From positions 320-64,319 of the forward strand of contig CAIOPG010000011.1 of NCBI GenBank assembly GCA_903860135.1: a stretch of 64,000 nt of DNA, written 5' to 3'. This document shows, piece after piece, positions 12,832-58,943 of this stretch. The stretch is from Candidatus Omnitrophota bacterium. GTDB taxonomy: Bacteria > Omnitrophota > Gorgyraeia > Zapsychrales > Fredricksoniimonadaceae. Under the pieces are notes generated by a model. It saw nothing but the letters and a program-made list of their open reading frames with translations, did not search any database and was not told the origin of the DNA. Position numbers and translations under genes: made by a program. Within the stretch, counting starts at the first letter, position 1. Each line of letters starts with the position of its first letter.

Positions 12832-12897
12832 ACCACTCCTTTATTCGCTCGGCCTTTTCTTAGGAAAAAAAGCCTTTTCCAACAAAATAGGGATTTC

Positions 12898-34899: not shown

Positions 34900-35607
34900 T
34901 TACAGGCAGCGGGAAAGAAATGCCGTCACCGCTGTTTCCACACGCAATACCCTGGGCCCAAGCCCCGCCAAAGAACAGCCCGCGGCACAAAAAGCATCGA
35001 GCTCCTGCGCGATAAACCCGCCTTCAGGCCCGATCACAAGGACTTTCGGTCCAGGCCAAGGGATACCGATCTTGTCCCCCGAAGGATCTGCGACCAACCC
35101 CCTGCGGCCCTCCAACAATTTCGGCAAGTCCTCTTGCATAAAAGACTTCTGGCAACGATGCAGAAAAACCGCAGGCATAACCGTATCCCTTGCCTGTTCA
35201 AGGCCAAGGATAAGCTGTTCCCGGATATCTGTTGCTTCAAGCGCGGTGCTTTGCCAGAAACTTTTTTCAACCCGCTGAGAGTGAAAAACGTGAATGGCCT
35301 CAACCCCCATGGCTGTGGCTGACTGCAAGACCCGCCGGAAAACAGGCGGCCGCATAAGCGCGACCGCCAGGATAACCGGTATCTTCAGTGGAGCGTCTTG
35401 CGACAAAGCAATATCCATTTCCAACTCACTGTCGGTCAATCGGACAACAACCCCCTGCCCTGTTCGGCCATTCTCAACCCCAACAATAAGCCTGTCACCA
35501 ACAACGGCGCGATGAATAGCCATCACATGGGCATGGCGACGTCCGGCAAGAATAACCCTGCTTGTAGCGGGAATAAAATCGGAAGGAAAGAGGAGGATTA
35601 GATTCAT
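34900..35607 (-). CDS. rsmE: 16S rRNA (uracil1498-N3)-methyltransferase
   Basis: RsmE-like length (235 aa) and sequence pattern (PUA-like N-terminus, SPOUT C-terminus). Confidence 0.65.
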   Translation of the reverse strand: MNLILLFPSDFIPATSRVILAGRRHAHVMAIHRAVVGDRLIVGVENGRTGQGVVVRLTDSELEMDIALSQDAPLKIPVILAVALMRPPVFRRVLQSATAMGVEAIHVFHSQRVEKSFWQSTALEATDIREQLILGLEQARDTVMPAVFLHRCQKSFMQEDLPKLLEGRRGLVADPSGDKIGIPWPGPKVLVIGPEGGFIAQELDAFCAAGCSLAGLGPRVLRVETAVTAFLSRCL

Positions 35608-35655
35608 AAAAAGCAGGGGCGTGGGCAGAGCCCTCCACCCCTGCTGATCAACACT

Positions 35656-36051
35656 TTATTCTTCCATCCTGAGGGCCTTGCGCAGGCGCGCCGGGATCAT
35701 GCGCGCGAGGGTGTGCGACTTGACCTTCTTTTTCTGACGATCAACAACAACCTCGACCTGGCGCCGGACAGCAATGAACGCATCGCGCACAACCGCCGAA
35801 AGGTTATCATGAACGTTGCGCCCGGAATCACGCTTGACCACGATCTCGTGATGCGGCGGCATGCGCACATCGATGCGGACATGATAGGTATGCCGGGCAT
35901 GCTGATGGGTCGGGTTCTGCTCGATGAATACGCGGCAGCTGATAATATGATCGCAGGAATGCTCCAGCTTTCCGAGCTTTTCCTGTACAACCGCTTCGAT
36001 CGCGGCTTTGTCATCAACGTTCTTCATGATCAGTTCTAAAGGCAGCTGCAT
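35656..36051 (-). CDS. hpf: Ribosome hibernation-promoting factor / RaiA family
   Basis: 131 aa. KLGKLE...HVRIDV pattern typical of HPF/YfiA. Confidence 0.6.
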   Translation of the reverse strand: MQLPLELIMKNVDDKAAIEAVVQEKLGKLEHSCDHIISCRVFIEQNPTHQHARHTYHVRIDVRMPPHHEIVVKRDSGRNVHDNLSAVVRDAFIAVRRQVEVVVDRQKKKVKSHTLARMIPARLRKALRMEE

Positions 36052-36107
36052 AATACCTCCGTGTTATTGTCTTGATGCTCTTCTTTATTTTCGCCATAAT
36101 TTGCCGT

Positions 36108-36136
36108 TTGTCAACGGCGTAAATGCGGATAATAAT
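36108..36136 (+). promoter_or_regulatory. Candidate promoter for the helicase gene (-35 TTGTCA, 17 nt, -10 ATAAT-like) with a small dyad gccgtt/aacggc
   Basis: ttgtcaacggcgtaaatgcggataataatt directly upstream of the ATG at ~36163 and its aaggg SD. Confidence 0.3.
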
Positions 36137-36162
36137 TGACGCCCCAAAAAACAAGGGCTAGA

Positions 36163-38331
36163 ATGACGGCACTTATGCATTTTGAAGACCTTCTTGTCCG
36201 ACACAATTTCCCTCCGGCTTACCGGCAAGCCCTGCTGGCCGGAGGCATCACCATGCTCCATCCGCCCCAGGCCGATGCCATCCACGCCGGGGTGCTTAAC
36301 GGCACCAATGTCATCCTGGCTGTGCCCACGGCCTCGGGGAAAACGCTGATCGCGGAACTCGCGATACTGAAAGCCATCTTTGAAAAAGGCGGCCGATGCC
36401 TGTATATCGCCCCTCTTAAAGCCCTGGCCAGCGAAAAATACCGCGACTTCAAAAAAAAATACGAACCGCTCGGGATCAAGGTCGGCATCGCCATCGGCGA
36501 TCTTGATTCACCCTCGGCTTATCTGAAAGATTACCAGATCATCATCGCCACCGCCGAAAAGATGGACTCGCTCCTGCGCGCGCGTTCCCCCTGGCTTTCC
36601 AACGGGATCGCCGTCACGGTATTCGATGAGGTCCATGTCATCAATGATGCCAGCCGCGGGCCGACCCTCGAAATTCTTATTACACGCATCCGGCTGATGA
36701 ACCCGGAAATGCAGGTGCTGGCGCTGTCGGCCACCGTCGCCAATGCCCGGGAAATGGCTGACTGGCTGAACGCGAAAGCCGTGATCAGCTCCTGGCGGCC
36801 CATCCCCCTCCATGAAGGTATTTATTACAACAAGCGCCTGACCTATGAAAGCGGGCGCATCAAGATCCTCCATGAAGACGCACCCGATGAAACACAACAG
36901 CTGGTCATGGACACCTTGCGCGGCCAGGGGCAGGTGCTGGTCTTTGTCAATGCCCGGCGTTCCACGCAGTCTGTCGCCCGTGAGCTGTGCCGCTGGGTCG
37001 GGCCTTTGCTCACGCCCGAAGAAAAAGACATCCTGAAAACAGTTGCCAGCGACATCGCACCGGAAACATCCGCCACCAAAGTCTGTAAAAAACTGGCCGA
37101 AGTTGTCGTCCACGGGGTGGCCTTCCACCACGCAGGGCTCAAGCCGGACCAGCGCGAAGCCATTGAGGAAAATTTCAAAAAAAACATCATCAAGGTCATT
37201 TGCTGTACACCAACGCTGGCCGCCGGCGTCAACCTCCCGGCTCGCCGCGCCATTATCCGTGATACCAAGCGCTATGTTTCCGGCGCCGGCTCTGTCTTCA
37301 TCGCGGCATCGGAATACAAGCAGTGCGCCGGCCGCGCAGGCCGCCCGCAATACGATGAATACGGTGAAGCTGTCCTGATCGCCAAATCGCTTTCGGAACA
37401 GGATGCCCTGTTTGACCGCTTTATTCTGGCGCCGCCCGAACCGGTCATCTCCAAACTTTCCGACGAAGCCCAGTTGAGGCGTCACGTTCTGGCCTCGGTG
37501 GCCGGCGGGTATGTCCATGATGTCAACGGCATGTTTGAATTCCTTGAACACACCTTCCTCGCCCATCAGCATAAAGGCGCGAACCTGATCGAACTTGTGG
37601 GCGGCATCTTTGATTTTCTGCACCGGGAACAATTCATCGACAAAAGCGGTTTTAGGTTCTTCCCGACGCCCTTTGGCGCCCGGGTCAGCCGCCTGTACAT
37701 CGACCCTGTTTCGGCTTTAGTGTTAAAGAAAGGCCTGGCCCGCATTGCCGCCGGAACCAATTTCTCGTCGATCGGCATCTTGCACCTTATCTGCTCGTGC
37801 CCGGACAGCGAACGCCTGTCCGTCGGCAAGAAAGGCCTGGAAGAACTTGAAGATTTCGGTAACAAGGTGGCCGATGAGCTGGTCATGACCCGTGAAGATA
37901 TCCAGTCCCTGCAGGATTATTACACATCGCTTGGCGTGCTTAAAACCGTCTGGATGCTGTTACGCTGGATGGATGAAGAAAAAGAAGAAGCTGTTTGCGA
38001 GCGCTTCGACATCGGGCCAGGCGACATTTTCCGCCACACCGAATCCGCCCAATGGCTCGTCTACGCCGCGCAATCGATCGCTGAAGTTTATCAGTTCAAG
38101 AAACTGACCCATTTTCTGGAAGGCTTAAAGAACCGCGTGCGCTACGGCATCAAGGCAGAACTGCTCGAACTCGCCGGGCTCAAAGGTATCGGCCGCATCC
38201 GCGCCCGCGTCCTTTTCGACCACGGCTACCAGACCCGCGCCGATTTCAAGAACGCCACCGAAACCGACCTCGCCCCCATCAAAACCATCGGCCCGGCGCT
38301 GGCGAAGGATATTTTGCGGCAGGTGGGATGA
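36163..38331 (+). CDS. Hel308/Ski2-type superfamily 2 DNA helicase (DEVH box, C-terminal HhH)
   Basis: Walker [15 protein letters not shown] ([10 protein letters not shown]), motif [15 protein letters not shown]-terminal [13 protein letters not shown] HhH. The track start 36136 is an alternative (TTG). The ATG at 36163 has an SD. Confidence 0.8.
38116..38155 (+). repeat. Left copy of an imperfect direct repeat (attL-like) inside the helicase 3' coding region
   Basis: ctggaag(gcttaaag)aaccgcgtgcgCtacggcatcaagg matches 48190-48221 except for an 8-nt indel and 1 mismatch. Confidence 0.7.
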
Positions 38332-38386
38332 TGTTCGACCTACGAAGACCAATACTTCATATTCCCATGACTCAAATGACGTAGTA

Positions 38387-38415
38387 TTGACATTGTGAAC
38401 TTTAAATAGTATCTT
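38387..38415 (+). promoter_or_regulatory. Candidate promoter of brnTA (-35 TTGACA 38387-38392, 17-nt spacer, -10 TATCTT 38410-38415)
   Basis: Read directly, 7 nt upstream of the brnT ATG region. Confidence 0.4.
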
Positions 38416-38421
38416 AACTTT

Positions 38422-38706
38422 ATGCTTTATAAATGGGACATTGATAAGAATGCCTGGCTTAAAGAACATCGAAACGTTTCTTTCGAAGAAATCATTGGGT
38501 GTATCGCAGACCAGAAGATTATCGACGTGATCGAGCATCACAATCAACGAAAATATGCCCATCAAAAGATCATGGTTGTGGCATTAAACGGATACGCTTT
38601 TCATGTCCCATACGTTGAAGATCACGAAGGAAGTTGTTTTCTTAAAACAATAATACCAAGTCGAAAATCAACCAGAAAATATTTGGAGCATACTTATGAA
38701 ACTTGA
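38422..38706 (+). CDS. brnT: BrnT-family (DUF497) ribonuclease toxin
   Basis: 94 aa. WDIDKN...N..KH.VSFEEI family pattern. Overlaps the downstream antitoxin gene by 11 nt. Confidence 0.7.
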   Translation: MLYKWDIDKNAWLKEHRNVSFEEIIGCIADQKIIDVIEHHNQRKYAHQKIMVVALNGYAFHVPYVEDHEGSCFLKTIIPSRKSTRKYLEHTYET

Positions 38707-38971
38707 TAAAGAAGAACAGGCATTATTAAATTCTATTGAGAACAAAGAATGGATGCGGATTAAGAATTTTGAAAGCGAATCAAAAAAGTTACAACAGACC
38801 GCTATCAAAACCCTACGCAAAGATCAACGCATCAGCATTCGCTTAGCCAAGTATGATCTTGATGGGCTCAAGATGAAAGCCGTCGATGAAGGCATTCCCT
38901 ACCAGACAATTATTGCCAGTCTTATTCATAAATACATCACTGGCCGGATCGGCACGAAGATAGTTGCCTAA
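38696..38971 (+). CDS. brnA: BrnA-family antitoxin
   Basis: 91 aa. ISIRL...DLDGLKMKAVDEGIPYQTIIASLIHKY typical of BrnA (RHH-like C-terminus). Toxin-first order as in brnTA. Confidence 0.65.
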   Translation: MKLDKEEQALLNSIENKEWMRIKNFESESKKLQQTAIKTLRKDQRISIRLAKYDLDGLKMKAVDEGIPYQTIIASLIHKYITGRIGTKIVA

Positions 38972-39112
38972 CTTCCTGATTGCCCCACCACTGCCTTGAC
39001 ATCATTATCATGCACGTTCCTCGAACTCATGCCTTTGCCATGGCCATGGACACCGGGTGCCCAGGATCAGAAGTACAAATGCAAGGAAAATGAGCATCTT
39101 GTATCTTCTATA

Positions 39113-39256
39113 AACCCGGATTTTGCAATAGCCAAAGAATTTGTGTCGCAAGCTATTAAAATTAAATGAGTTGTACTATTACAATGCAATAGAAACTGTA
39201 CAATTTAGTGCATTGGGTTTCAGTCGGTATTTTGAGTCTTATTGCAAAATCCGGGA
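39113..39256. repeat. 16-bp perfect inverted repeat (cccggattttgcaata) flanking ~110 bp of AT-rich non-coding DNA. Possible MITE-like element or structured RNA
   Basis: Arms at ~39113-39129 and ~39241-39256, between convergent brnA and the DUF262-HNH gene. Confidence 0.5.
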
Positions 39257-39275
39257 TAAATGTTACCAAATTCTT

Positions 39276-40445
39276 TCACCGATTTCCTTTTGCACGATTA
39301 TGCGACTTGCATAACATCTGACAATTCTTGATATTTGTCCCACCACCCTTGCTCCATGCGGCGACATGGTCAGCGTCCATTTCAGCCAACTTCCAAGACT
39401 TGCTCTTGTTAGCATCATGCCCAAGGGCACAAAGGGGACAGTTTGACGCACCTTTTGCTTCAGCTTTTTTAGTCTGTGATTCAAAAATGGATCTCTTTGT
39501 TGCATCATCAAAAACTCGAACATCCAGCAATTTCGTATCCGTCGAACCGCCAAGGATGTACTCAAAAACACCTTTTCGATTTTTGACATAAGGATCACTG
39601 TGTAACTTTTTTACCTCGTCTGATACCTTGGCTGGACTATACGCCGTTGCGTGATACTCTTCATACAATCGTCCCCACTCAAGCCCGCGCATCTCGCTTG
39701 CAACATCGATAAAGACACTGGAAACCCATTCGATCACGCTGTTGAAATACCTTTTAAGTTCGTTGATATCTGTGTCACGGCGATGCCGACACATATAATC
39801 GCCAATATTACCCTTACTAACCCAATCCAGCGCACATTCCAGAAATTCCTGCCGATTGGCACTACCAGAAATATACGAGCTCCATTTTTGGATATTGGCA
39901 TTTTGACTATTACTAAATTCTTCCTTACCAAGTGTAACAAATGACCCTGAATACACGGCGTTGAGTCGTTCTTGAGCATTGAGTGGGACGCCGACAATAT
40001 TAATTGTTTCGAACCACTCTTTTATCTCACTTTCCGTCCCTTCACATTCATAAATAAGCAGCTTTGTTTCCAATAGCCTATCTTTCTTATCTTTTGCCAT
40101 ACCACTAAAATACTGTGGCATACCGCTTTCATCTGTAATGGCAAATTTCCCCGTCACAAATCGTCCAAGACTGGTAATGCGCTGTTGCCCGTCTAAGACT
40201 TCCAGTTTACTATCGTTGACTTTATTGAAATAAATCAATCCTATAGGGTACCCCTTGAGGACTGATGCGATGACAGCCATTTCTTTCCTGCCGCCGTCAG
40301 AAACATAAATGTAGTTACGCTGATACTCTGGTTGGATAGTCAATTTACCAGATAAGCCGAATAGACCCTTGCCTTCAAGTTCGTTATAAACAAAACCTTC
40401 GCAAATATCTCTAACAGTAATACTCGTCTTAAGCGTTGCTTCCAT
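39276..40445 (-). CDS. DUF262 (ParB-like/GmrSD N-terminal) - HNH nuclease fusion protein
   Basis: N-terminal DGQQRITSL motif (DUF262 DGQQR). C-terminal CPLC...[35 protein letters not shown] motif. ATG overlaps the methyltransferase stop by 17 nt. Confidence 0.75.
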
Positions 40446-41634
40446 AATTCTTCCTATGTCTTATAAGTACTCTTTGATAAACTTTCTCCATTAATCCGTT
40501 TTGAATAATCACCCCACTCGCATTCAAATCATATGTTCCCTTTTTCCCAAATTTATCTAGATATGCCGTCTTGCATTCTACAGTTGAATATTTTTTACTT
40601 TTTAAATTATAAAGATCTTCATTCTCACACATACCCAGTATCTCAAATTGATCAGGATTATACTTGTCCAGAAAACTAATCGGCACTCCCATTACGCCGT
40701 CATAATCACTCGGGATAGAATCGGTAAACGATACTTCTATAGCATCATAATTATCGTATTTATCATACTTTCTTTTGCCGTTGATTTCTTTATGTTTACT
40801 GTGTTTTAGATTTTCCTTCATTGTCATTAGCGGTAGCGGTTTATGACGCCGCCCGTGGTCGAGATTAGTGAACCAACAAACACCCGGAACACGATTTACT
40901 TTTACGCCATTTCGTTCTCGTTCAAATTTATACGTATCATTATAAACAAAATCACTAGAAACTTGGAAATACATGCCTGTGTTAAAATTCGTTGCACCAA
41001 GCCACAATTTATTTTCCTTAATTTCTGGGAAAACATCTTTGTAAGTAATCGCATTCATATTGCCAATAATGACGAACTTCTTATTGTACTCAAAAAGTTG
41101 TTTAACATACTGCCGAAACAGGCTGAATGGTGGATTTGTTACGACAATATCTGATTGTTTAAGCAAATTTATACATTCATCACAGCGAAAGTCGCCATCA
41201 CCTTTTAGCGGCGTCCATTCGTTGTTTTTGTTTGCCTTTAACTGCCTGGCAACATCCTTCAAGTTAAACTCGCCATCACCATCGATGTCGTGCGCCTCGT
41301 TAATAATAAACTTGTTGGCGGTTACCTTGGGACGACCTTTTGATTTTGTGAAAGTTTCGTCACCAAACAATTCCAGCTGTGTATTAGCCACGGGCGAGGG
41401 TTTGTAGCTGGTGGTGATAAGCTGTTTTAGCCCAAGCTTATTAAAATTTAGCACGAAATAACGAAAAAAATTGCTTTCGAACGGATCATCACAATTGCAA
41501 TACACTACCTTGTCGCGAAATGTATCGGGGTCGTACTCCAAATACGCTTCCATCTCCTTCTGAATATCGCCGTACTGAGTATAAAACTCGTCATTCTTGG
41601 CCCTTTTCGCACTTGTAAGATTATCGTTTGCCAT
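40429..41634 (-). CDS. EcoRI-family N6-adenine DNA methyltransferase
   Basis: N-terminal [18 protein letters not shown]...VVYCNCDDP resembles the M.EcoRI N-terminus. NPPF catalytic motif ([10 protein letters not shown]). Confidence 0.7.
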
Positions 41635-41728
41635 ATTGTTTCCTGTTATTGAATCAGTTTCTCATATTCTCTGTGCGTCCCAATCCAAAACCAAACAGTA
41701 TCTCCTCATTAACTCGATGTTAAAATCT

Positions 41729-41762
41729 AGTATAACATTTCACGAATTAACTCCCCCCCCCC
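41729..41762 (-). promoter_or_regulatory. Putative mod-operon promoter region: poly-G(10) tract (plus-strand poly-C 41753-41762) 18 nt upstream of a TATACT -10 box (41734-41729), ~95-125 nt upstream of the methyltransferase ATG
   Basis: Homopolymer cccccccccc read directly. The tract occupies the -35 position relative to the TATACT box. Confidence 0.35.
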
Positions 41763-41774
41763 ACACACATCCTC

Positions 41775-43136
41775 CTACGTCGGAAGAATATAACTAAATC
41801 CATCTTTCCCCAGCCGCGCGGTCAACTTGTCGATGATGGCCTGTGGATCATCCTCTGGCCCTGCCATAAATAACGGCTTGCCGTCGGGGCCGCCGAATTT
41901 AAACACGCGTTCCTTGCAGTCTTCGTCTTTCTCACCCAGCACATGCCGCGCCACCTCAAAATCAGGGTGCGGATCAAATCCCAGATTTTGCGCGTACGCC
42001 ACCGCCTGGTTCACCAGCCGCTGGGCACATCCGATGCAGAAATCATCCATAACCCCTGGATAATGCATCACCATGACGTCGATCTGTTTCCGGGTAAGTC
42101 CCGCTCCATAAGACGCTTGCTTGACGCCAAGACATTGCAAATCAATCAAATACACGCCAAAAATATAATGCGACGCACCCATCGCCCTTATCACCATAAC
42201 AGTCGCAAAAGCCCGCTCTTCCCAATCCTCATTAACAAGCACGTACCGCAACGGGTATTTTTCTGAAGCCTTGACTGCCTCCTTTATTTCCTGTTCTGTC
42301 AGATCCAGAGGAACCGGCGTCCGGACAGCGTCATCTTTGGCCATGCAACATTTCTTATATTTCTTGCCGCTACCACAATAGCAGGGCTCATTCCGGCCGA
42401 TCTTGGTTTTTGGTTCAGGCACTTCATCGTGATCGCCAGGACGCAGGCTTCTGCGCGGATATGTTCGCTTGGCTTTTACACCCAAAGCGATTTCCACATC
42501 CTCCAGATCACCCTGCACAGAGCAATCAACCTTGTCATACGCGAATGCTTCACGTATACAGTCGAGCGATTCCAGTGCGTTCAATCCTGTCAATCCATCG
42601 ATCAGGAATGCATTCAATGTCGAATCATTGATGAAAAAATACTTTAATTCATCTGTCAGGATCGTTACACAGCGATCTCTGACAGAACCACCTTCCTTAC
42701 CAATCAGACAAAGACTGCTCTCCGCCGCTACCCGCGCGAATAACCCGTTCCGGCGATCTTTCAAATACAAGGACAGACCCTCGATGGCACCAGCCCCGAT
42801 CATGGCCATAACCTCCGGCAATTCCTCGCCCACCCAATCGTCATCCTCCTCGTCGATCCGCCGCAATAAAGACAGCAATGCCCCGACAGCGTCAACGGCT
42901 TTCAGCTGTCCCAGCGCCCGCCACCCGTGCACCGATGCCCAGATAGTCAACGTATCACGCCCGCCTGAATGCAGGCGTTCATCCTCGATCATCCTGATCA
43001 GTTCAGGAACATGCTGTTCCCCCAGCCCCAGGCTTAAATAATCCGGCCATTCATCACCCAATTCACATTCCCCATAAACAAGTAATTGATCTACCGGACT
43101 GGCATACGCCGTATCAGCTGTCTCTTCACGCATCAA
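41775..43136 (-). CDS. SEC-C motif (zinc-binding) domain protein, 453 aa, function unknown
   Basis: Central EPCYCGSGKKYKKCC SEC-C motif. AGGGGG SD before the ATG. Confidence 0.55.
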   Translation of the reverse strand: MMREETADTAYASPVDQLLVYGECELGDEWPDYLSLGLGEQHVPELIRMIEDERLHSGGRDTLTIWASVHGWRALGQLKAVDAVGALLSLLRRIDEEDDDWVGEELPEVMAMIGAGAIEGLSLYLKDRRNGLFARVAAESSLCLIGKEGGSVRDRCVTILTDELKYFFINDSTLNAFLIDGLTGLNALESLDCIREAFAYDKVDCSVQGDLEDVEIALGVKAKRTYPRRSLRPGDHDEVPEPKTKIGRNEPCYCGSGKKYKKCCMAKDDAVRTPVPLDLTEQEIKEAVKASEKYPLRYVLVNEDWEERAFATVMVIRAMGASHYIFGVYLIDLQCLGVKQASYGAGLTRKQIDVMVMHYPGVMDDFCIGCAQRLVNQAVAYAQNLGFDPHPDFEVARHVLGEKDEDCKERVFKFGGPDGKPLFMAGPEDDPQAIIDKLTARLGKDGFSYILPT

Positions 43137-43183
43137 AGCCCCCCTGGTTTTAAAATTTGCGGAGATTCAATCGCATTCTGCAT

Positions 43184-43209
43184 CTCATTTGGCAAACACG
43201 TGTTTACAT
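43184..43209. promoter_or_regulatory. Palindrome cluster upstream of the SEC-C gene: AAACACGTGTTT (12-bp perfect) followed by ACATGT and GTCGAC
   Basis: Read directly in the 43137-43411 intergenic region. Confidence 0.3.
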
Positions 43210-43411
43210 GTGTCGACATCCCGACCTTTTAGACTTTTTTATCAAACAGCCATCAATTTATACGTATCGCCGAAATTGACATTCCACCATGTGAATGCAG
43301 GCGGCATCCGTGATATACGCCGACGTATAAATGACCGGATGATGCGGATCCAGCTGATGCACTTCCTGGATCAGTTTCTCTAAAAACCAACAAAAGCCTA
43401 CCCGCTCCTTT

Positions 43412-43645
43412 TCATTCTTTCCCCGCCCACGCGCCTTTAATGTAGTACGGCTTGCCATTGACCATCAACACCCATTGCCCCTTGTCACCGGCGACTTTAA
43501 CAATATTGCCGGCGTGTTTTTCCTGGGCAAAGATGGGATTTGAAATAATGGTAGATACTGCGAGATTGATGATGATTGCCAGTATCAGGAGGGATTTTGA
43601 CATAATGGCCTCTTTCTTAATATAGCCTTGTTTTCTCAAAATCAT
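43412..43645 (-). CDS. Small secreted hypothetical protein (77 aa)
   Basis: Signal-peptide-like MSKSLLILAIIINLAVSTIISNPIFA, then a short beta-rich mature part. Could be spurious. Confidence 0.3.
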   Translation of the reverse strand: MILRKQGYIKKEAIMSKSLLILAIIINLAVSTIISNPIFAQEKHAGNIVKVAGDKGQWVLMVNGKPYYIKGAWAGKE

Positions 43646-43776
43646 CTACATCCCATTCAACGATACACATGCTCCGCAATGACCTCGCCGTTCTCATCAT
43701 AAAAATTTCCGTCAGCTGCCATCATAATGAAGCTCTGATACTTTTGCGCCACTTTTGAAAAAACCAGCGCCGCCCC

Positions 43777-44652
43777 TCAACCCAATTCAAGTCGATCAAA
43801 GCGTTCAATCAGGATTTTATCAAAGTTTTTAGCGAGATCATGAGGAAGCCGGGATGCCTTGATCTTTTTGCGGAAATTTTCTTTCTGCCCGATAAAACGC
43901 GCCAAGCGTACTTTCTCAGGAACGCCTAGATTGTCAGCCAAAAGGTCGATCTCTTTTCTTCGGATATTGCTCTTGCGACCCTGGATGGTCAATGCTGACT
44001 CATCAGCCTCGTTCGGTAAAACAATCCTGGAACACACCAGATCATACGCAGGAGCAAGTCGGACATGACCTTCCTCGTCGTAAATGACCGAGTAATTCTT
44101 CATGTGCGCATCGCCGTTGGCAACAAGAAAGTTATAAACAATACGCTCAAAAAAAAGCTGTGTATCCAGCCCCGGGACTTCGGAAACAGCTTTCAATTTC
44201 CGCCCGATCTCCTCGACCGAACCGTCATATTTATTTTCTTTCCCAAGGATCTGCGCAAAATCTTCCTGATGGATCTTACGGCGTCCTTCCCGGTCAAAAC
44301 GCTTAACCACATACGCCAGACTCTTATCCTTCAAAGGCACCAGGCAATGCACAGGCACATCAATCCCAATATCTCCGGCAATATTCATGCAGAGTTCTTC
44401 ATTCTCCGGCAAATTCGCGAATGCTTGCACTTGCGGCTTCAAAATATACTGACCTCCCTCGCCAGCAACTTCAAGGCGAGGCTCACTATCTTTATCCGCA
44501 AGCCGGACTGAAAGCTTGGGCTGAACGCCGGAAATAGACATCTTCCCGACCATCTCCTGGGCTTTCAGAGAAACCCCGGCTAGCGTCAGATCAATGAACG
44601 GCTCACGATCGACACCAAAAACTTCTCGCCATATTGATCGCTCATGCTTCAT
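43777..44652 (-). CDS. hipT: HipT-like HipA-family Ser/Thr kinase toxin (kinase core only, lacking the HipA N-domain)
   Basis: SGVQPKLS, VKRFDR and LVANGDAHMKNYS (HipA catalytic GDxHxKN) motifs. 291 aa. Confidence 0.75.
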   Translation of the reverse strand: MKHERSIWREVFGVDREPFIDLTLAGVSLKAQEMVGKMSISGVQPKLSVRLADKDSEPRLEVAGEGGQYILKPQVQAFANLPENEELCMNIAGDIGIDVPVHCLVPLKDKSLAYVVKRFDREGRRKIHQEDFAQILGKENKYDGSVEEIGRKLKAVSEVPGLDTQLFFERIVYNFLVANGDAHMKNYSVIYDEEGHVRLAPAYDLVCSRIVLPNEADESALTIQGRKSNIRRKEIDLLADNLGVPEKVRLARFIGQKENFRKKIKASRLPHDLAKNFDKILIERFDRLELG

Positions 44653-44981
44653 ACAGCCCCGCTTTCTTTCACGGTAACAGCACCGATCGTATTCTTCCCT
44701 GTCACCAATAATATTCCGAATTCATCAGCCGGATCGATCTTCCTTGTCGCACAGACGATATCCCGATACCAACCCTCAGCGTTCATTCCCGCAAAGAAAG
44801 AAAATAATACCGCCGACTCAAAAGGCTCTGCCTGCAACGGCAAAGACAAAGAGACCGGTTTACCCGTCTTTAAATAATCAGCCCCATATACAAACCTGTA
44901 CCCGTCACCTGTTTCTTCCAGGATACCGGCCAGCTGATCATGAAGGAACACATCTGCTTTACGCTTCCTAACCCTTATCAT
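44649..44981 (-). CDS. hipS: HipS-like protein (stand-alone HipA N-terminal domain)
   Basis: VFLHDQLAGILEE...YRFVYGADYL resembles the HipA N-terminal domain. Likely start Met at 44981 (track start 45065 overlaps hipB). 4-nt overlap with hipT. Confidence 0.6.
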   Translation of the reverse strand: MIRVRKRKADVFLHDQLAGILEETGDGYRFVYGADYLKTGKPVSLSLPLQAEPFESAVLFSFFAGMNAEGWYRDIVCATRKIDPADEFGILLVTGKNTIGAVTVKESGAV

Positions 44982-45171
44982 TGCGCATAACCTCAAGATG
45001 ATGCCCCAAAAAATCCAGAACCTGATTGACCTTATCCAGGCGCACCGTAGCCTTGCCCTGCTCAAGCTCTCTCAGAAAACGAAGACCAACACCAGCACGC
45101 CGTGCAAACTCAACCTGGTCAAGGCCAGCCTTCTTCCGAAGTCCCTGTATTATTTTTCCGATGTCTTTCAT
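44968..45171 (-). CDS. hipB: HipB-like XRE-family HTH antitoxin of the tripartite system
   Basis: MKDIGKIIQGLRKKAGLDQVEFARRAGVGLRFLRELEQGK HTH. ATG at 45171 preferred over the TTG at 45276 because two operator-like dyads lie just upstream. Confidence 0.6.
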   Translation of the reverse strand: MKDIGKIIQGLRKKAGLDQVEFARRAGVGLRFLRELEQGKATVRLDKVNQVLDFLGHHLEVMRNDKG

Positions 45172-45180
45172 GATTAAAAT

Positions 45181-45272
45181 ATACACCCTGAAGGGTATAA
45201 AAGCAAGGCGCGTTGTTCGAGATATGGAGAATTTGGAAGATAAAAATGATTTATATACCCTTTCGGGTGTAT
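45181..45272 (-). promoter_or_regulatory. Two operator-like imperfect dyads upstream of hipBST: ATACACCC-tgaa-GGGTATA (45181-45199) and ATACCC-tttc-GGGTGTAT (45255-45272)
   Basis: Both share the half-site ATAC(A)CCC, spaced ~75 bp apart, 10-100 nt upstream of the hipB-like ATG. Confidence 0.45.
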
Positions 45273-45307
45273 TCAACTATTGTTTAAAGACAATATTTTC
45301 TGCCCTC

Positions 45308-45595
45308 TCACGTCGGGCGGAATATCTTTAATTTAATATCAGGGATCATTCGGAAATGTTTTTCATTGCCGGAAACAAGCAGAAGGTCATTCTCTGCCGC
45401 CGTTGCGGCGATGATGGCGTCCCCCGCCGTTAACCCATGCGACAACGCATATTGCTCCATATAAATCATGGCTCTGTGACCAATATTTTCAGTAATAGAA
45501 AGAACTGAAAAATGATACACGCTCAAGAACGACTTGCAAGAAGCCAATTGTTGTATGAACGTGTGGAGCGAGGTGGCGGCTATGTGACTATACAT
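45308..45595 (-). pseudogene. Remnant of a PIN-domain (VapC-like) toxin gene. Only the C-terminal part is present
   Basis: C-terminal PIN-like LTAGDAIIAATAAENDLLLVSGNEKHF. No N-terminal catalytic Asp region and no cognate antitoxin. Confidence 0.45.
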
Positions 45596-45627
45596 ATTTA
45601 TATATGCGTATACGGTATAAATACATC

Positions 45628-45680
45628 ACAACACATATTTATTCATGTGTTGTTGACATTAACTATATTCATGGTATCCT
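45628..45680 (+). promoter_or_regulatory. hipBA promoter/operator: 9-bp perfect dyad ACAACACAT-N8-ATGTGTTGT (45628-45653) overlapping -35 TTGACA (45653-45658). 16-nt spacer. Extended -10 TGgTATCCT (45672-45680)
   Basis: Read directly. Lies ~170 nt upstream of the hipB ATG with an AAGGAG SD. Confidence 0.5.
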
Positions 45681-45849
45681 TTTGATAGAAAGAAGCCGAA
45701 CATGTTTAGCCTATGTCTTTTTTCGCCGGCCTTACCGCGCCACTCTTTCGGCTTCTCTCGGGGGATAAACCCCCTCGTTCCAGGCGAAAAAGCACTCGGT
45801 GCTCGGCGCGGCGAACGCGCAAACCGCTAAATATGCACAAGGAGCCAGT

Positions 45850-46170
45850 ATGGATTTTTTATTTGCAGGCGACAGGGATATCCTTAAAGAATTAGGATCC
45901 CGTGTCCGTCGTGCACGACTTGAAATGAACATATCCCAGTTAAAGTTTGCTTTGCAAGCCGGCGTTGCCATTGGCGTTGTTCAGAACTTTGAAGCCGGGA
46001 AGGCCTGCTCCCTCAAAAGTTTTATCCGAATGCTCAGGGTCACGCACAACCTGGCCAATCTTGCCTTACTGGTCCCTGAACCACTTCCAAGCCCTATTGA
46101 AGTAGCAAAAATGTCCGGAAAACAGCGACGTCGCGCCGGAGCTGCCAAAATAAATAAGGATAATCTATGA
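45850..46170 (+). CDS. hipB: HipB antitoxin (XRE-family HTH)
   Basis: ATG at 45850 preceded by AAGGAG. HTH LEMNISQLKFALQAGVAIGVVQNFEAGK. 4-nt overlap with hipA. Confidence 0.7.
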   Translation: MDFLFAGDRDILKELGSRVRRARLEMNISQLKFALQAGVAIGVVQNFEAGKACSLKSFIRMLRVTHNLANLALLVPEPLPSPIEVAKMSGKQRRRAGAAKINKDNL

Positions 46171-47498
46171 GCCCGGCAAATAAAGCCATTGATCAGGCCA
46201 ATGTATTTCTTTGGGGGGCACCAGTCGGGACGGTCATATGGGACAAAAACAGGGACCTTGGCATTTTTCAGTATGACAAGTCATTCGTAAGCAAAGGACT
46301 GCAGATCTCCCCGCTCTTGATGCCGCTTAGTGTTGATACGAAGTATTCGTTCCCGGCATTGGACAGGGTAACCTATTATGGCCTTCCGCCACTCCTGGCC
46401 GATGCGCTACCTGACAGATTTGGCAACGCTCTTATTGATATTTGGCTTCGGGATCAAGGAAGAGAGTTAAATTCTTTTTCTCCCGTTGAGCGACTTTGTT
46501 ATATGGGACAGCGCGCTATGGGCGCACTTGAATTCCGCCCGGCTACGGCACGGGTCTTGGATGAATCTATTAAGATCTCCATTGATGAAATGAGCGCACT
46601 TGCTCAAAAAATTCTTACTAAAAAGGCGCAACTGTCGGTGAATAGAAACAAGGACAGCGCCATGGCCATCCGATCCATTATTGAAATCGGCACCTCGGCC
46701 GGCGGCAACAGGGCAAAAGCTGTCATCGCCTGGAATAAAGAGACTGGGGAAATCCGTTCTGGTCAAGCAGATGCCTCAACAGATTTTGAACATTGGATCA
46801 TTAAATTCGATAATGCCAGTGAAAAGATATTGGGTGATCCGCATGATTATGGGCGCGTGGAACACGCTTACTACAATATGGCCATTGCGGCCGGGATTAA
46901 TATGAGCCCCTGTCATTTGTGGGAAGAAAACGACCAAGCGCATTTTATGACGCGCAGATTCGACAGGGGGAAAAGTGGCCAGCGACTCCACATGCAGTCC
47001 CTCTGTGCCTTGGCAGGGTATGACTTCAATCAGATCGGCAAATATCATTACGAAGAAGTTTTTGGAATCATTCAGAAGTTGCGACTTTGGCATCAAGCAA
47101 TCCAGGAGCAATACCGTCGCATGGTGTTTAATGTGATGGCACGGTGCCAAGATGATCATACAAAGAATATATCATTCCTGATGACCCCGGAAGGGAAGTG
47201 GGATCTATCCCCTGCTTATGATAACGCCTGGTCGTATAGTCCCAGGGGGCTTTGGACTGGTCAGCATCAAATGCGGGTCAATGGCAAGCGAGATGAGTTT
47301 ACCGTGCAGGATTTGATAGAAGCTGGGAAATCTTATGAGATTAGTAAAGCGAAGAATATGTGTGAACAAGTTGGCGATGCCGTAGCCCGTTGGTCAACAT
47401 TTTCCAGGCAATCAGGTGTTTCCAAGGAAATGACTCACCGCATTGCAAAAACACACAGGAAAGAACTGTTTATAAAAAGAAAATCTGGTTTAAAATAA
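46167..47498 (+). CDS. hipA: HipA Ser/Thr kinase toxin (full length)
   Basis: 443 aa. HipA N-domain plus kinase core (GAQLKF-like region, DDHTKNISF catalytic loop). Confidence 0.85.
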   Translation: MSPANKAIDQANVFLWGAPVGTVIWDKNRDLGIFQYDKSFVSKGLQISPLLMPLSVDTKYSFPALDRVTYYGLPPLLADALPDRFGNALIDIWLRDQGRELNSFSPVERLCYMGQRAMGALEFRPATARVLDESIKISIDEMSALAQKILTKKAQLSVNRNKDSAMAIRSIIEIGTSAGGNRAKAVIAWNKETGEIRSGQADASTDFEHWIIKFDNASEKILGDPHDYGRVEHAYYNMAIAAGINMSPCHLWEENDQAHFMTRRFDRGKSGQRLHMQSLCALAGYDFNQIGKYHYEEVFGIIQKLRLWHQAIQEQYRRMVFNVMARCQDDHTKNISFLMTPEGKWDLSPAYDNAWSYSPRGLWTGQHQMRVNGKRDEFTVQDLIEAGKSYEISKAKNMCEQVGDAVARWSTFSRQSGVSKEMTHRIAKTHRKELFIKRKSGLK

Positions 47499-47679
47499 CA
47501 TAAAACAATGGGCTTTTTCCAAGAATCAATACTGCGTTCAATATATACAGGGCCATTATTTGCCACATCAATCTCTAAATTCAAGAATAAACGCCGACTC
47601 TTATGGCAATTATTTGAACTTCAATGAGAACTTATCAATGGGGGAATGTTAAATTTCTCTGACCAGACATCACTCACAA

Positions 47680-48183
47680 CTATTTGCGCGCAACAGCAGG
47701 AAGGCCCAATAAACTACGCAGATCCGAGACAGGACTGATATCAACAACCTCCGGCACAAAGCCTGGCGCGCGCATCAAACCGTCAAATGTCGTGTACTCA
47801 GGAAGTTTAAAATCAACACCTGCACCCGAAAGCGTCACATTCATATTTTTGCCTTTAAAATCGATACCACCTTCGTGGCGGGCAATTCCGGCATCATCAT
47901 GCGGAACGATCTCCCGCAATTTCTGCATCACCTCCCGCCTTACCAACTCTCGTTGCTCTAACGGAAGCAAGGCATACTCCCTCACGCTACCTGAAAAACT
48001 ATCTTGGGATATTCCCCATTCACGATCTGGATTAAACTTGCCATCATCAGATCTTCCAATTTCTTCTTTGGTTAACACATTCAACATACCAATAAAGAAA
48101 TCAAGTTGATCAAAATGCGGATTCCTTAAGACACTCTCTCGCAAAAAAATTGGGGCACATTGGTTCTTAATTGCTGGGGGCAC
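47680..48183 (-). CDS. Hypothetical protein (167 aa), GTG start abutting the right-hand direct repeat
   Basis: ORF only. No recognisable motifs. Confidence 0.3.
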   Translation of the reverse strand: MPPAIKNQCAPIFLRESVLRNPHFDQLDFFIGMLNVLTKEEIGRSDDGKFNPDREWGISQDSFSGSVREYALLPLEQRELVRREVMQKLREIVPHDDAGIARHEGGIDFKGKNMNVTLSGAGVDFKLPEYTTFDGLMRAPGFVPEVVDISPVSDLRSLLGLPAVARK

Positions 48184-48189
48184 ACAAGA

Positions 48190-48221
48190 CTGGAAGAACC
48201 GCGTGCGTTACGGCATCAAGG
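48190..48221 (+). repeat. Right copy of the direct repeat (attR-like). Helicase 3'-end remnant reading [10 protein letters not shown]...AK-stop
   Basis: ctggaagaaccgcgtgcgTtacggcatcaagg matches the helicase internal segment. Confidence 0.7.
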
Positions 48222-48478
48222 TCGCATGTTGCGACCTCGTAGCCAAATAGTGTGTCCCGATTTTCCCTTCACGCCCACAGCTCATCGAGTGCCAATACGC
48301 CAATTCTCCTTGCCCTTTATATGCAGAATACATCTTCAATTCCTGAAATATAAACGCCTCAAAACATTCTCCGTATTCCTTGGAACCAACGGCAATTTCC
48401 TTGCGGTTTTGCAGGAAGCGTGCGAGGCCGATATCAAAGAAATTTTACAATTTACAAGTTAAAGCCCGTATCGGGGTC

Positions 48479-49537
48479 TCAAATTCTTGTTTGAGCCATA
48501 AAATCTCTGAAATCTTTGGCATTGGCAATAGCCACATCATAAGTAATAATTCCCTGGCGATACAATGTTGCCAACGACCTATCCAAGCCAACCATGCCCT
48601 CCGCGCCGCCCGTCAATATAACTCCGTTCAATTGATTGGTATCCCCGTTGCGTATGACATGACGGACGGCCGAATTTGTGATCAGTATTTCCAAAGCCAG
48701 TGCTCTGCCTGTTTTATCTATACGCGGCAATAGCCGTTGCGAAATAATTCCTTGCAACACCCCCGCCAACTGCATCCTCACCCACTCTTGCTGACCTTGA
48801 GGGAACACATCAACAATTCTATCCAGTGCCACGATGGTATCGGAGGAATGGAGTGTGGCTAATACCAAATGTCCGGTTTCTGCTGCTGTCAATGCAATGC
48901 TGATCGTTTCTAAATCCCGCATTTCACCGATACATATACAATTAGGGTCTTGCCGTAAGGCTTGCCGCAATCCTTCATTAAAAGACCTTGTATCTTTTCC
49001 CACTTCCCTTTGTATGATAACCGAATTAATGGACGAATGAACGTACTCAACCGGATCTTCGATCGTTATGACGCGCGATCGGCGATCATCACGATTAATA
49101 CAGTCGATCATCGCCGTCATTGTTGTTGTCTTCCCCATGCCCGCCGCCCCTGTGATCAAGATCAAGCCATTGGGTCTTCGTGTAAGTTTCTTGACAATAA
49201 GAGGCAACCCCAACTGTTCCAAAGAAGGAATGCGTATAGGAATAATGCGAATGGCGGCTTCCACATTCCCCATTCGATAATAAACATTCATGCGAAAATA
49301 CGCCACTTTCTTCAGGTTGAAGGAAACATTCAACTCTTTATTTTGTTCAAAGTGCATAATTTGCTCTTCAACAAGACACTCGTAAATGAGTTGTTGTGTC
49401 ATATCCGAAGAAAACTTATCGTACGCCATGGTTTCTAATAAACCATTGACCCTCATGGTTGGCGGCATCCCCACCATCAGATGGACATCCGAAGCATGGT
49501 GAGATATGGCATCACATAATATTCTTTCTAATTTCAT
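48479..49537 (-). CDS. pilT: Type IV pilus retraction ATPase (PilT/PilU family)
   Basis: Walker A GAAGMGKTTT, Asp box, His box. N-terminal ASDVHLMVGMPPTMRVNG. Confidence 0.8.
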   Translation of the reverse strand: MKLERILCDAISHHASDVHLMVGMPPTMRVNGLLETMAYDKFSSDMTQQLIYECLVEEQIMHFEQNKELNVSFNLKKVAYFRMNVYYRMGNVEAAIRIIPIRIPSLEQLGLPLIVKKLTRRPNGLILITGAAGMGKTTTMTAMIDCINRDDRRSRVITIEDPVEYVHSSINSVIIQREVGKDTRSFNEGLRQALRQDPNCICIGEMRDLETISIALTAAETGHLVLATLHSSDTIVALDRIVDVFPQGQQEWVRMQLAGVLQGIISQRLLPRIDKTGRALALEILITNSAVRHVIRNGDTNQLNGVILTGGAEGMVGLDRSLATLYRQGIITYDVAIANAKDFRDFMAQTRI

Positions 49538-49747
49538 GGAAAGACCGCCTTTCTGTATCTCTTGACCCTAGTCCGTGCATTAAACATCTTTTTCCAACAC
49601 CTTGATCAACGTCCTGCCAGAAAAACCATCACATCGTTCATGAGCTTAACACTAATAATAACAGACATGAGCCAATTTGCACACTGCAATCGCTCAACAT
49701 GCCATTCAATACCTCAGCAGAAACTGGAGTGTTAAAGAAATAAGATG

Positions 49748-50485
49748 TTATTCCAAATACTTCGCCGCTTTGATGTTTTTTTCGAGGTGGTAGAGGAGGA
49801 AATTGTTGAGGATGTTCTTGAGTTCCTTGCGGACAGAGGGGGCAAGGGTGAGTTTGAGGCATTGAAGCCAGGGGTGTTTTTCGATGTAAATAAGGGACGC
49901 GAGGGCACCGGGAGATACGGGAATGAGACCGGGCTCCCTGCGTTCACAGCGCGGGCAAACGAGACCACCCTGTCGCGTGCTGAACTTGGCTTTGTGTGTA
50001 ACAGCGCAGGCGCACTGGACGCACGAATCAATGTGCGGGCGAAAGCCTGACAGGGCCAGAAGCTTGATCTGGAACATGTGCACGAGCCGCCCCGGATCCC
50101 TGGCCTCGCCGAGCGAACGGCAATAATCCAGGAGCAAGGTATACACAGGTTCGTTCTTCTGCTCCACCGGCATGATCTTGTTTAAAAGTTCACAGGCATA
50201 ATCAGCGGCGGTCATACGCTTGATGTCCACACGGATCGCCGGGAAATGTTCTTTCATGTCGCAATGGCTGATCAGGTGGATGTCGCTGTTGCGGTACTGG
50301 TAGAAAATGATGTCATTGACGGAAAGTTTGTCGAGGCTGGTGCGGAACTTGCGCGGATCCTTGCGGATGCCCTTAAGGACACCGTTGACCTTGCCGTGCG
50401 AACGCGTGAAAAAAAACGCGATCACGCTCGTCTCGCGCAGGGGCACCGTCCTTAAGACTACAGCTTCCGTCGATATAATGGCCAT
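49748..50485 (-). CDS. recO: DNA repair protein RecO
   Basis: N-terminal OB fold EAVVLRT...L..HGKV. C-terminal Cys4 zinc motif CVQC...CPRC. Confidence 0.8.
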   Translation of the reverse strand: MAIISTEAVVLRTVPLRETSVIAFFFTRSHGKVNGVLKGIRKDPRKFRTSLDKLSVNDIIFYQYRNSDIHLISHCDMKEHFPAIRVDIKRMTAADYACELLNKIMPVEQKNEPVYTLLLDYCRSLGEARDPGRLVHMFQIKLLALSGFRPHIDSCVQCACAVTHKAKFSTRQGGLVCPRCERREPGLIPVSPGALASLIYIEKHPWLQCLKLTLAPSVRKELKNILNNFLLYHLEKNIKAAKYLE

Positions 50486-50500
50486 AATAGATCCATGCTC

Positions 50501-50938
50501 CTACATGACCAAAGCAAGCCATGCCTCTTCACGCGCGCGCATGACGGCACGCTGTTTTAACGTGGCATCATCCTGCCCCAGCAAATGCAAGATGCCGTGC
50601 GCGAGGTACCGCAACAGCTCACGTTCCTCCGGCTCGCCGTAGATCCGCGCATTGCGGCGCGCTTCCGCCGGGCAAATATAGATCTCGCCATCGATGCGCC
50701 CGGGGACAACCCCTTCACCCAGATTAAATGTAATCACATCGGTCACATAATCATGACCCAGGCGGGCGCGATTGACAGCACGGATACGGCTTCCGGTAAC
50801 AAAGACCAGCGAAAGCTCCGCCGCATTGACACCGCTATGGGTCAGGAACACCTTAGCGGCCTGCGTGATCTTCCGGGGCGTCAGCGTGATCGTCGCCGCC
50901 GAAAGGCTTACCGTGATGTCCATTTGTTTTTTTAGCAT
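50501..50938 (-). CDS. ybeY: rRNA maturation endoribonuclease YbeY (start uncertain)
   Basis: HGILHLLGQDD metal-binding motif. The track ORF (to 50992) overlaps the upstream gene by 140 nt. Confidence 0.75.
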   Translation of the reverse strand: MLKKQMDITVSLSAATITLTPRKITQAAKVFLTHSGVNAAELSLVFVTGSRIRAVNRARLGHDYVTDVITFNLGEGVVPGRIDGEIYICPAEARRNARIYGEPEERELLRYLAHGILHLLGQDDATLKQRAVMRAREEAWLALVM

Positions 50939-52259: not shown

Positions 52260-52264
52260 AAGCC

Positions 52265-53662: not shown

Positions 53663-53676
53663 AACAGGATGCCTTT

Positions 53677-54984: not shown

Positions 54985-54985
54985 G

Positions 54986-55267
54986 TTATTTGATCTTCTG
55001 TTTCATCTCAAGCCCGGGTTTGAACACAACCACGCGGCGCGGCGGCACAGGCACACTGGCGCCAGTGCGCGGGTTCCGCCCGAAACGGGCCCGGCGTTCC
55101 TTGATCTTGAACACGCCAAAATTACGTAACTCTACTTTTTCGTTACGGTTAAGGCTGTCGACGATAACATCGAATGTTTTCTGGACGATCTTCTTCACAT
55201 CTACCTGCTTGATGCCTGTCATGTCGGTGATCTTAAGTACAATGTCTTTCTTTGTCATATGTGTCAA
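54986..55267 (-). CDS. hupB: HU/IHF-family DNA-binding protein
   Basis: 93 aa. RNFGVFKIKERRARFGRNPRTG arm motif. Confidence 0.85.
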   Translation of the reverse strand: MTHMTKKDIVLKITDMTGIKQVDVKKIVQKTFDVIVDSLNRNEKVELRNFGVFKIKERRARFGRNPRTGASVPVPPRRVVVFKPGLEMKQKIK

Positions 55268-55407
55268 CCTCCTAAATTTTGTAAATATCGTACCAACAAG
55301 GACTTATGGTGTCAAGGAGAAAGCCTTTCTCCTTGCGGCGCGGATTGGATCTGCCTCAACCAACTGTCATCAAGTGTAGAATATTGCGCCCCAAAAAACA
55401 ACCCCCC

Positions 55408-58884: not shown

Positions 58885-58943
58885 CAGCTAAAACCTTGAC
58901 CGCAACGGCAGCCGGCATTTTCCGGCCACCGCGGCGGTAAAGA

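Follow-up and report, generated by a model that had tools for sequence, protein, structure and literature searches.

A 36-nt repeat of a Hel308 helicase gene within the variable gap between Hel308 and RecO in a Candidatus Omnitrophota bacterium

In a 64-kb stretch of DNA from a Candidatus Omnitrophota bacterium (hereafter the window, which belongs to a 75-kb ENA scaffold), a short segment from the 3' part of a Hel308-family helicase gene recurs as a direct repeat about 10 kb downstream, and toxin-antitoxin (TA) and restriction-modification (R-M) genes lie between the two copies. This arrangement raises the question whether the repeats, designated L in the helicase gene and R downstream, are the ends of a single integrative element that entered the helicase gene, as a preliminary description of the sequence had proposed. 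The comparison with related loci presented here favors another answer. The locus is probably an integrase-less accretion hotspot between core genes, and R a non-functional scar left by illegitimate recombination. The positions of all features are given in Table 1.

A genome scan with the helicase protein returned 34 loci, nearly all of them in metagenome-assembled genomes of Candidatus Omnitrophota. The comparison set used throughout consists of about 20 related Omnitrophota loci (labels L001 to L030), together with L041, a contig from another sample that comes from an independent Logan assembly (SRR14761150). The closest relative is L002, with 86% nucleotide and 95% amino acid identity; L001 shows 79% nucleotide identity. 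The gene order of the window was recovered identically from three samples. As determined by tblastn of the window proteins, the related loci share the order RsmE(-), HPF(-), Hel308(+), gap, RecO(-), YbeY(-), 7TM-HD(-) and aminoacyl-tRNA synthetase(-), with the Hel308 and RecO genes convergent on the gap. Window positions 36355 to 38331 align to L002 at the nucleotide level and positions 35012 to 38332 to L001, and the homology breaks at the helicase stop codon (38331/2). It resumes at the RecO stop codon, at 49744 to 49748. The variable segment is therefore the 11.4 kb from 38332 to 49747, in agreement with a tract of low GC content that reaches to about 50,000, past R. The right copy of the repeat lies 1.5 kb inside this segment, and the idea of an island bounded by the two copies does not hold.

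The gap between Hel308 and RecO is variable across the relatives. It measures only about 28 to 600 bp in L019, L018, L010, L002 and L030, and 1.3 to 6 kb in the other loci, where it holds genes of unrelated kinds, among them those for two-component systems, nucleases, large secreted proteins and a fragment of a RAYT-like transposase. None of the window proteins from BrnT through PilT found a match in any gap of the approximately 20 relatives by tblastn. The forecast that related genomes would carry the helicase locus without this cargo was thus correct, but the break falls at the stop codons of the flanking genes and not at the repeats. No empty-site variants were found within the species; all contigs with an identical RecO, an identical PilT or a near-identical helicase carry the island. 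Most of the relatives' gaps contain no recognisable defence genes, and the site is a general variable gap, not a dedicated defence hotspot. It nevertheless displays the features by which hotspots are recognised: syntenic core flanks, variable occupancy that includes near-empty sites, cassette turnover between close strains, and defence and TA cargo. No recombinase was detected in the 64 kb with Pfam, PADLOC, NCBIfam or the precomputed Pfam annotations, as had been noted earlier from the sequence.

The helicase gene that forms the left wall of the gap is intact. Its product carries the Pfam domains DEAD, Helicase_C, Helicase_dom4_arc and HHH_5 (residues 677 to 728) and matches the structures 2zj2 (E 3e-152), 2p6r (E 4e-137) and 2va8 over nearly its full length. 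It is a complete five-domain Hel308, with a Ski2-like core, the archaeal domain 4 and a C-terminal helix-hairpin-helix (HhH) domain 5. With homology running to the stop codon and all five domains accounted for, the gene cannot be regarded as the site of an insertion. The 176 nt that follow L (38156 to 38331) are 86.4% identical to L002, as compared with 86.1% for the whole gene, and the relatives rank in the same order for this segment as for the entire gene when identity is computed segment by segment against seven orthologues. A replaced helicase 3' end is ruled out by this analysis, and no displaced 3' end follows R. The helicase is native through its stop codon and its 3' end is vertically inherited. 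Helicases of the Hel308 type are generally associated with archaea and eukaryotes. A five-domain Hel308/Hjm protein is conserved and syntenic across Candidatus Omnitrophota (window, L001 to L030); its best archaeal matches, at approximately 40 to 42% identity, come from Methanomassiliicoccales and Aenigmatarchaeota.

The second line of evidence comes from strain L041, which was located through its 99%-identical PilT and is about 97% identical to the window over positions 48177 to 59496. Where the window has about 37 nt (48140 to 48176), L041 has 3.06 kb. This DNA belongs to an intact gene of 1148 codons, here called BSP (11436 to 14882 of the contig), whose product has a signal-peptide-like N-terminus and no match in Pfam or NCBIfam. 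The supposed orphan open reading frame of the window, 47680 to 48183, is the C-terminal remnant of this gene, with 85% identity to BSP residues 995 to 1148 by tblastn. In six relatives (L001, L003, L004, L005, L006 and L022) the minus strand encodes the N-terminal domain of BSP (43 to 46% identity) immediately after RecO. BSP is therefore the ancestral resident of the gap in this clade, and L002, whose gap is nearly empty, has lost it secondarily. The 20 or so nt nearest to the BSP start also share the motif TTTAATGGTGG with the upstream regions of BSP in relatives.

The two strains differ at the other side of BSP as well. The L041 contig terminates in the 3' end of a miniature inverted-repeat transposable element (MITE)-like sequence, which is joined to the 3' flank of BSP through the four nucleotides CTAT only. 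In the window the same two ends, as compared with nucleotides 1 to 40 of the reverse-complemented L041 contig, are separated by exactly the hipB-hipA cassette. One hipBA cassette and one 3-kb BSP deletion thus distinguish two strains of about 97% identity, which is direct evidence of piecemeal turnover, a process that still continues. Base composition agrees with this. The GC content at third codon positions (GC3) is 0.62 +/- 0.06 for 14 core genes, 0.35 to 0.45 for the BrnTA and R-M genes, 0.55 for the SEC-C gene and 0.44 to 0.52 for the Hip modules. The genes of the block (0.35 to 0.55) lie below the core average and form at least three classes. The hipBA polymorphism, the 3-kb deletion and these composition classes argue for piecemeal turnover and against one decayed element, and the remnant of BSP between the repeats is likewise at odds with a single element. 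The genes from BrnTA to HipBA are accessory, because they are AT-rich relative to the core and are not at this locus in the approximately 20 relatives. The view that everything between the repeats is accessory and AT-rich holds for these genes; it fails for the BSP remnant, an ancestral resident, and the low GC content does not stop at the right copy but passes it.

Table 1. Features of the Hel308-RecO locus, in window coordinates.
Feature	Position	Strand	Description
Hel308/Hjm-family helicase	36136-38331	+	Intact core gene, left wall of the gap; start at 36163 according to gene callers, 722 aa
Left repeat copy (L)	38120-38155	+	Native helicase codons ~662-673; both flanks colinear with orthologues
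TA/defence accretion block	38332-47679		Helicase stop to BSP stop; not at this position in any relative
BrnT-like toxin	38422-38706	+	Pfam BrnT_toxin 24.9 bits, below the cut-off of 34.5 (weak)
CopG/BrnA-like antitoxin	38696-38971	+	Pfam CopG_antitoxin 27.8 bits, below the cut-off of 28 (weak)
Type II restriction endonuclease, DUF262/GmrSD_N + HNH	39276-40445	-	PADLOC REase_II, E 9e-81
EcoRI-family N6-adenine methylase	40429-41634	-	PADLOC MTase_II, E 4e-105; Pfam EcoRI_methylase, E 8e-130
SEC-C motif protein	41775-43136	-	Core-like composition, GC3 0.55
HipBST tripartite TA system	43777-45171	-	HipB 44968-45171, HipS 44649-44981, HipT 43777-44652
PIN-domain remnant	45308-45595	-	C-terminal half only; Pfam PIN profile positions 64-114 of 120
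MITE-like element, ~140 nt	45700-45840	+	10-bp terminal inverted repeats TGTTTAGCGC/GCGCTAAACA; long imperfect hairpin, -53 kcal/mol
hipB-hipA cassette	45841-47524	+	HipB 45850-46170, HipA 46167-47498 (Pfam); present in the window, not in L041
BSP 3' remnant	47680-48139	-	Last ~154 codons; deletion junction 48139|48140, ~3.04 kb lost relative to L041
BSP upstream leftover and 25-nt insertion at the deletion junction	48140-48185		Partial duplication of GGGGCACA; from base-level comparison with L041
Right repeat copy (R)	48186-48221	+	Isolated 36-nt piece of helicase sequence, with the BSP promoter on one side and the PilT module on the other
Quasi-palindrome	48212-48244		Spans the 3' boundary of R; 8-bp stem without mismatch, AGGTCGCA-tgt-TGCGACCT, at 48219-48237; 15-nt arms 80% complementary
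PilT module	48222-49747	-	257-nt spacer, PilT-family ATPase 48479-49537, 210 nt to the RecO stop
RecO	49748-50485	-	Core gene, right wall of the gap; Pfam RecO_N, RecO_C

The repeat itself is real. Reported at first as 38116 to 38155 and 48190 to 48221, it was returned by a repeat finder as an ungapped pair of 36 nt (38120 to 38155 and 48186 to 48221) with 32 of 36 positions identical. The original gapped alignment (ctggaag, an 8-nt deletion, and 25 nt with one mismatch) covers the same bases; the ungapped one is better because R of L041 matches the L002 helicase at 35 of 36 positions without any gap. A 29-mer from R, allowed up to three mismatches, matched only the L and R sites in the window and nothing in 100 dinucleotide-preserving shuffles, which bears out the claim that the match is not due to chance. 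R of the window is identical to the L002 helicase at 34 of 36 positions, including a perfect 29-nt match to the L002-type allele, and to L at 27 of the best-aligned 29. L carries two derived synonymous changes, and at both positions R keeps the bases common to L002 and L001. R is therefore not a recent copy of the helicase allele now in place. In L041, R (AAGACTTGAAGAACCGCGTGCGTTACGGCATCAAGG) precedes the BSP start by about 83 nt, and the copies of the two strains agree at 35 of 36 positions.

R marks the point where the ancestral BSP promoter adjoins the species-specific PilT module, and it occupies the same position between the BSP and PilT genes in both strains. As stated in the preliminary description, it continues as a short dead-end reading frame to a stop codon, which can be read in the sequence and gives a blastx match. 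With R masked, blastx and blastn found no helicase similarity on either of its flanks at the nucleotide or the protein level, and an extended degraded helicase pseudogene around R is ruled out. A candidate second helicase patch at 47976 to 48002 (21 of 27 positions) does not exceed the chance level of an empirical null. Between the window and L041, identity is 97% in R, 96.5% in the spacer, 99.3% in PilT and 96.3% in RecO; the divergence shows no step across R, which excludes an inter-strain recombination breakpoint at this point. The PilT gene next to R is identified by NCBIfam (pilT_fam, 422 bits, cut-off 319) and has a GC3 of 0.47, as compared with 0.62 for the core. No PilT occurs in the gaps of the approximately 20 relatives. 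Its closest homologues (59 to 68% identity) are found in unrelated pilus or housekeeping contexts, and no R-like sequence was found beside other PilT homologues. No T-run follows the quasi-palindrome at the 3' boundary of R.

Several other origins of R were considered and set aside. A CRISPR spacer or a transposon homing guide is excluded, with no array, no flanking direct repeats and no cas or tns genes. A diversity-generating retroelement with template and variable repeats (TR/VR) is excluded as well: the window contains no reverse transcriptase, and only one of the four mismatches between L and R has an A in R. Helicase-derived patches do not recur in other gaps. Two exact matches, of 16 nt in L005 and 18 nt in L015, are coding coincidences because they are located in real genes with similar peptides (LIKEEL and LASIKA), and no repeat of the helicase core was found in the gaps of the approximately 20 other loci.

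That the repeat might be a chance match or an assembly artefact is hardly credible. Coding coincidences such as those in L005 and L015, and the chance-level patch at 47976 to 48002, do show that short helicase-gap matches arise by themselves, but the 29-mer was never recovered from the shuffles and R lies in non-coding DNA. The presence of R with unique flanks in the independent L041 assembly, and the same gene order in three samples, speak against an artefact. A function for R is very improbable, if slightly less so. R could be transcribed on the minus strand as part of a RecO-PilT-BSP transcript, as an RNA antisense to codons 662 to 673 of the Hel308 mRNA, or L and R could serve as a deletion substrate. 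The intergenic position of R between two co-oriented genes makes such transcription plausible, and R has been kept in both strains (35 of 36 positions) with its perfect 29-nt match to the L002-type allele. Its conservation is however no better than that of the spacer (97% versus 96.5%), and R does not follow the helicase allele of its own genome, matching L at only 27 of 29 positions. R or the gap has no Rfam match at E <= 1 apart from one spurious snoRNA match, the fold of R is not significant (z-score -1.1), and no terminator signal was found at R. It occurs once, in one species, and has no equivalent in other genomes. Were R to act as an antisense RNA, accessory DNA of the gap would tune or cut the message of a host repair helicase, with a target just before the autoinhibitory HhH domain. 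Recombination between L and R would instead produce a Hel308 devoid of domain 5 and shed the 10-kb TA/defence block as a circle; the deletion product would read helicase ...TTTTCTGGAAGGCTTAAAGAACCGCGTGCG.TACGGCATCAAGG joined to TCGCATGTTGCGACC, and the circle junction GGGGGCACACAAGACTGGAAGAACC...CATCAAGG joined to CAGAACTGCTCGAACTC.

A relic attachment site is the strongest competitor, although still an unlikely one. An integrative element that targeted the 3' part of Hel308 would have carried the 36 nt in its attP and come into the gap, possibly through a secondary site, before its integrase was lost. On this view, L and R would represent either an attB-like and attP-like pair that never recombined or what is left of attL and attR. 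This would account for a direct repeat whose match is far above chance and whose copies lie within the 3' part of a conserved gene and beside foreign AT-rich DNA, respectively, and for the location of R exactly where the BSP promoter meets the PilT module, with a hairpin at its edge. Tyrosine-recombinase islands in the 3' ends of genes indeed combine a direct repeat in a conserved gene with AT-rich cargo and a distal dead-end frame. Of five properties expected of a site-specific island, however, namely boundaries at the repeats, an integrase, an element-derived 3' end, an all-foreign interior and excision products, the first four are lacking here. The homology breakpoints (38331/2 and 49744 to 49748) do not fall at the repeats, the 64 kb contain no recombinase, the helicase 3' end beyond L is vertically inherited with no displaced counterpart after R, and the ancestral BSP resides between the copies. 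The helicase core is not repeated in the approximately 20 other gaps, and the R core sequence was not found in 2.9 million viral contigs. Finally, the only candidate for such an element, the PilT module, is 1.5 kb long and contains one housekeeping-type gene.

R is most likely the scar of illegitimate recombination in a gap that turns over piece by piece. The gap would have grown to 11.4 kb in the window's species through separate additions, with the PilT paralog placed between RecO and BSP, and the TA/defence cassettes between BSP and the helicase stop. Homologous recombination within Hel308 and RecO on either side, together with illegitimate joins within the gap, would bring cargo in and remove it. 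For R itself, two routes are plausible. A short templated patch may have been copied from the helicase, a few kb away, as the PilT module joined the BSP promoter. Alternatively, homology-facilitated illegitimate recombination (HFIR) may have displaced a 3' fragment of the helicase gene, of which only the 36 nt of R are left. The former route needs fewer events and the latter explains an R allele unlike L; we do not choose between them. Other junctions of the locus also contain short filler, namely the 25-nt insertion at the deletion junction in BSP and the CTAT that L041 has in place of hipBA.

Several points weigh against the accretion scenario. No intermediate genome, with PilT but without R or with R embedded in longer helicase homology, was found, and the event that produced R happened once and is beyond reconstruction. 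No microhomology is visible at the edges of R in the window or L041 sequences. No template was found for the 25-nt insertion at the BSP deletion junction, which leaves templated patching plausible rather than demonstrated. All sampled contigs of the species carry the island, and the L041 contig ends before the left half of the gap. A decayed element that has lost its integrase is an improbable alternative.

Precedents for the accretion hotspot exist in other bacteria. Integrase-less hotspots have been described in E. coli, with hotspot #37 as an example, 68% of whose cases have no detectable mobile genetic element (PMC10121019), and core defence hotspots (cDHS) in P. aeruginosa (PMC10250203). 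As in hotspot #37 and the cDHS, the present site is fixed between syntenic core genes, ranges from empty to many kb, holds R-M and TA cargo and, as is often the case there, has no mobility gene. It differs from them in that it belongs to Omnitrophota, is flanked by the convergent Hel308 and RecO genes, and also houses non-defence genes (BSP and the PilT paralog). HFIR has been invoked for orphaned 3' fragments at type VI secretion system (T6SS) and Rhs loci (PMC5361080). Like the 3'-displacement scars of V. cholerae T6SS effector-immunity arrays and Rhs orphan C-termini, R is an orphan fragment of the 3' part of a gene downstream of new cargo, at a locus with no recombinase where a conserved gene could serve as homologous anchor. 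Unlike those scars, R measures only 36 nt and has neither the remaining gene sequence nor an orphan partner behind it, an ancestral gene separates it from the helicase, and the event was single and not serial. The pattern of integrase-less hotspots is already known, the locus is an ordinary one, and its significance is modest. It provides a worked example of a variable gap between two DNA-repair genes in an uncultivated phylum, where cassettes are gained singly. It also calls for caution in island calling, since a highly significant direct repeat, with a copy in the 3' end of a gene, can resemble attL and attR and yet fail all comparative tests; the variable DNA is in fact bounded here by the stop codons of the flanking genes.

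The gene content reported for the block in the preliminary description largely stands. The BrnTA pair scores just below the Pfam cut-offs, the VapC remnant corresponds to a partial PIN domain, and the orphan open reading frame, as described above, is the remnant of BSP. The restriction endonuclease and methylase genes overlap by 17 nt. The nuclease combines DUF262/GmrSD_N with HNH, an architecture better known among type IV enzymes. When metagenomes were scanned with the SEC-C protein from the centre of the block, only relatives of at most 45% identity were retrieved, none of them with other island genes nearby, and the block as a circulating unit is rejected on this basis. A search for flanking repeats of the block gave nothing above chance. 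An open reading frame of 77 codons lies between the SEC-C gene and HipBST. The latter consists of consecutive overlapping minus-strand genes with the domains HTH_3, Couple_hipA and HipA_C (NCBIfam couple_hipA), which is the gene architecture of HipBST systems, and HipT is predicted to be a kinase.

The BSP family comprises proteins of 600 to 1150 residues with a conserved N-terminal domain of about 340 residues (...DLWVNLSPYE.DRIV...) and a short C-terminal motif (GGIDL...GF.P.I...). Tandem paralogs occur, with up to three in L006. The BSP remnant is 7 to 10% diverged between the window and L041, versus about 3% for the adjacent non-coding DNA.

ERIC and Correia sequences are intergenic repeats of the MITE type. 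The element at 45700 to 45840 is MITE-like: it is short, encodes no protein, ends in inverted repeats, recurs at sites that are not homologous and has an empty site. Copies are present at non-homologous intergenic positions in L002 (3163 to 3294) and L001 (8569 to 8710), and a further copy lies at the end of the L041 contig (15038 to 15070). The site filled in L002 is empty in the window (50486 to 50500), and the edges of the L002 insertion show, as a candidate target-site duplication, only a fuzzy TGCT(CC) similarity. The element resembles ERIC and Correia in its length of about 140 nt, its inverted repeats and hairpin, its intergenic location at differing sites and its identifiable empty site. 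It has no Rfam match and was not found in viral contigs. In all copies it is co-oriented with the adjacent operon. Far from the gap, tandem coding repeats with periods of 39 and 117 nt occupy positions 963 to 3238 of the window, inside a minus-strand open reading frame of more than 2100 codons that runs off its left end.

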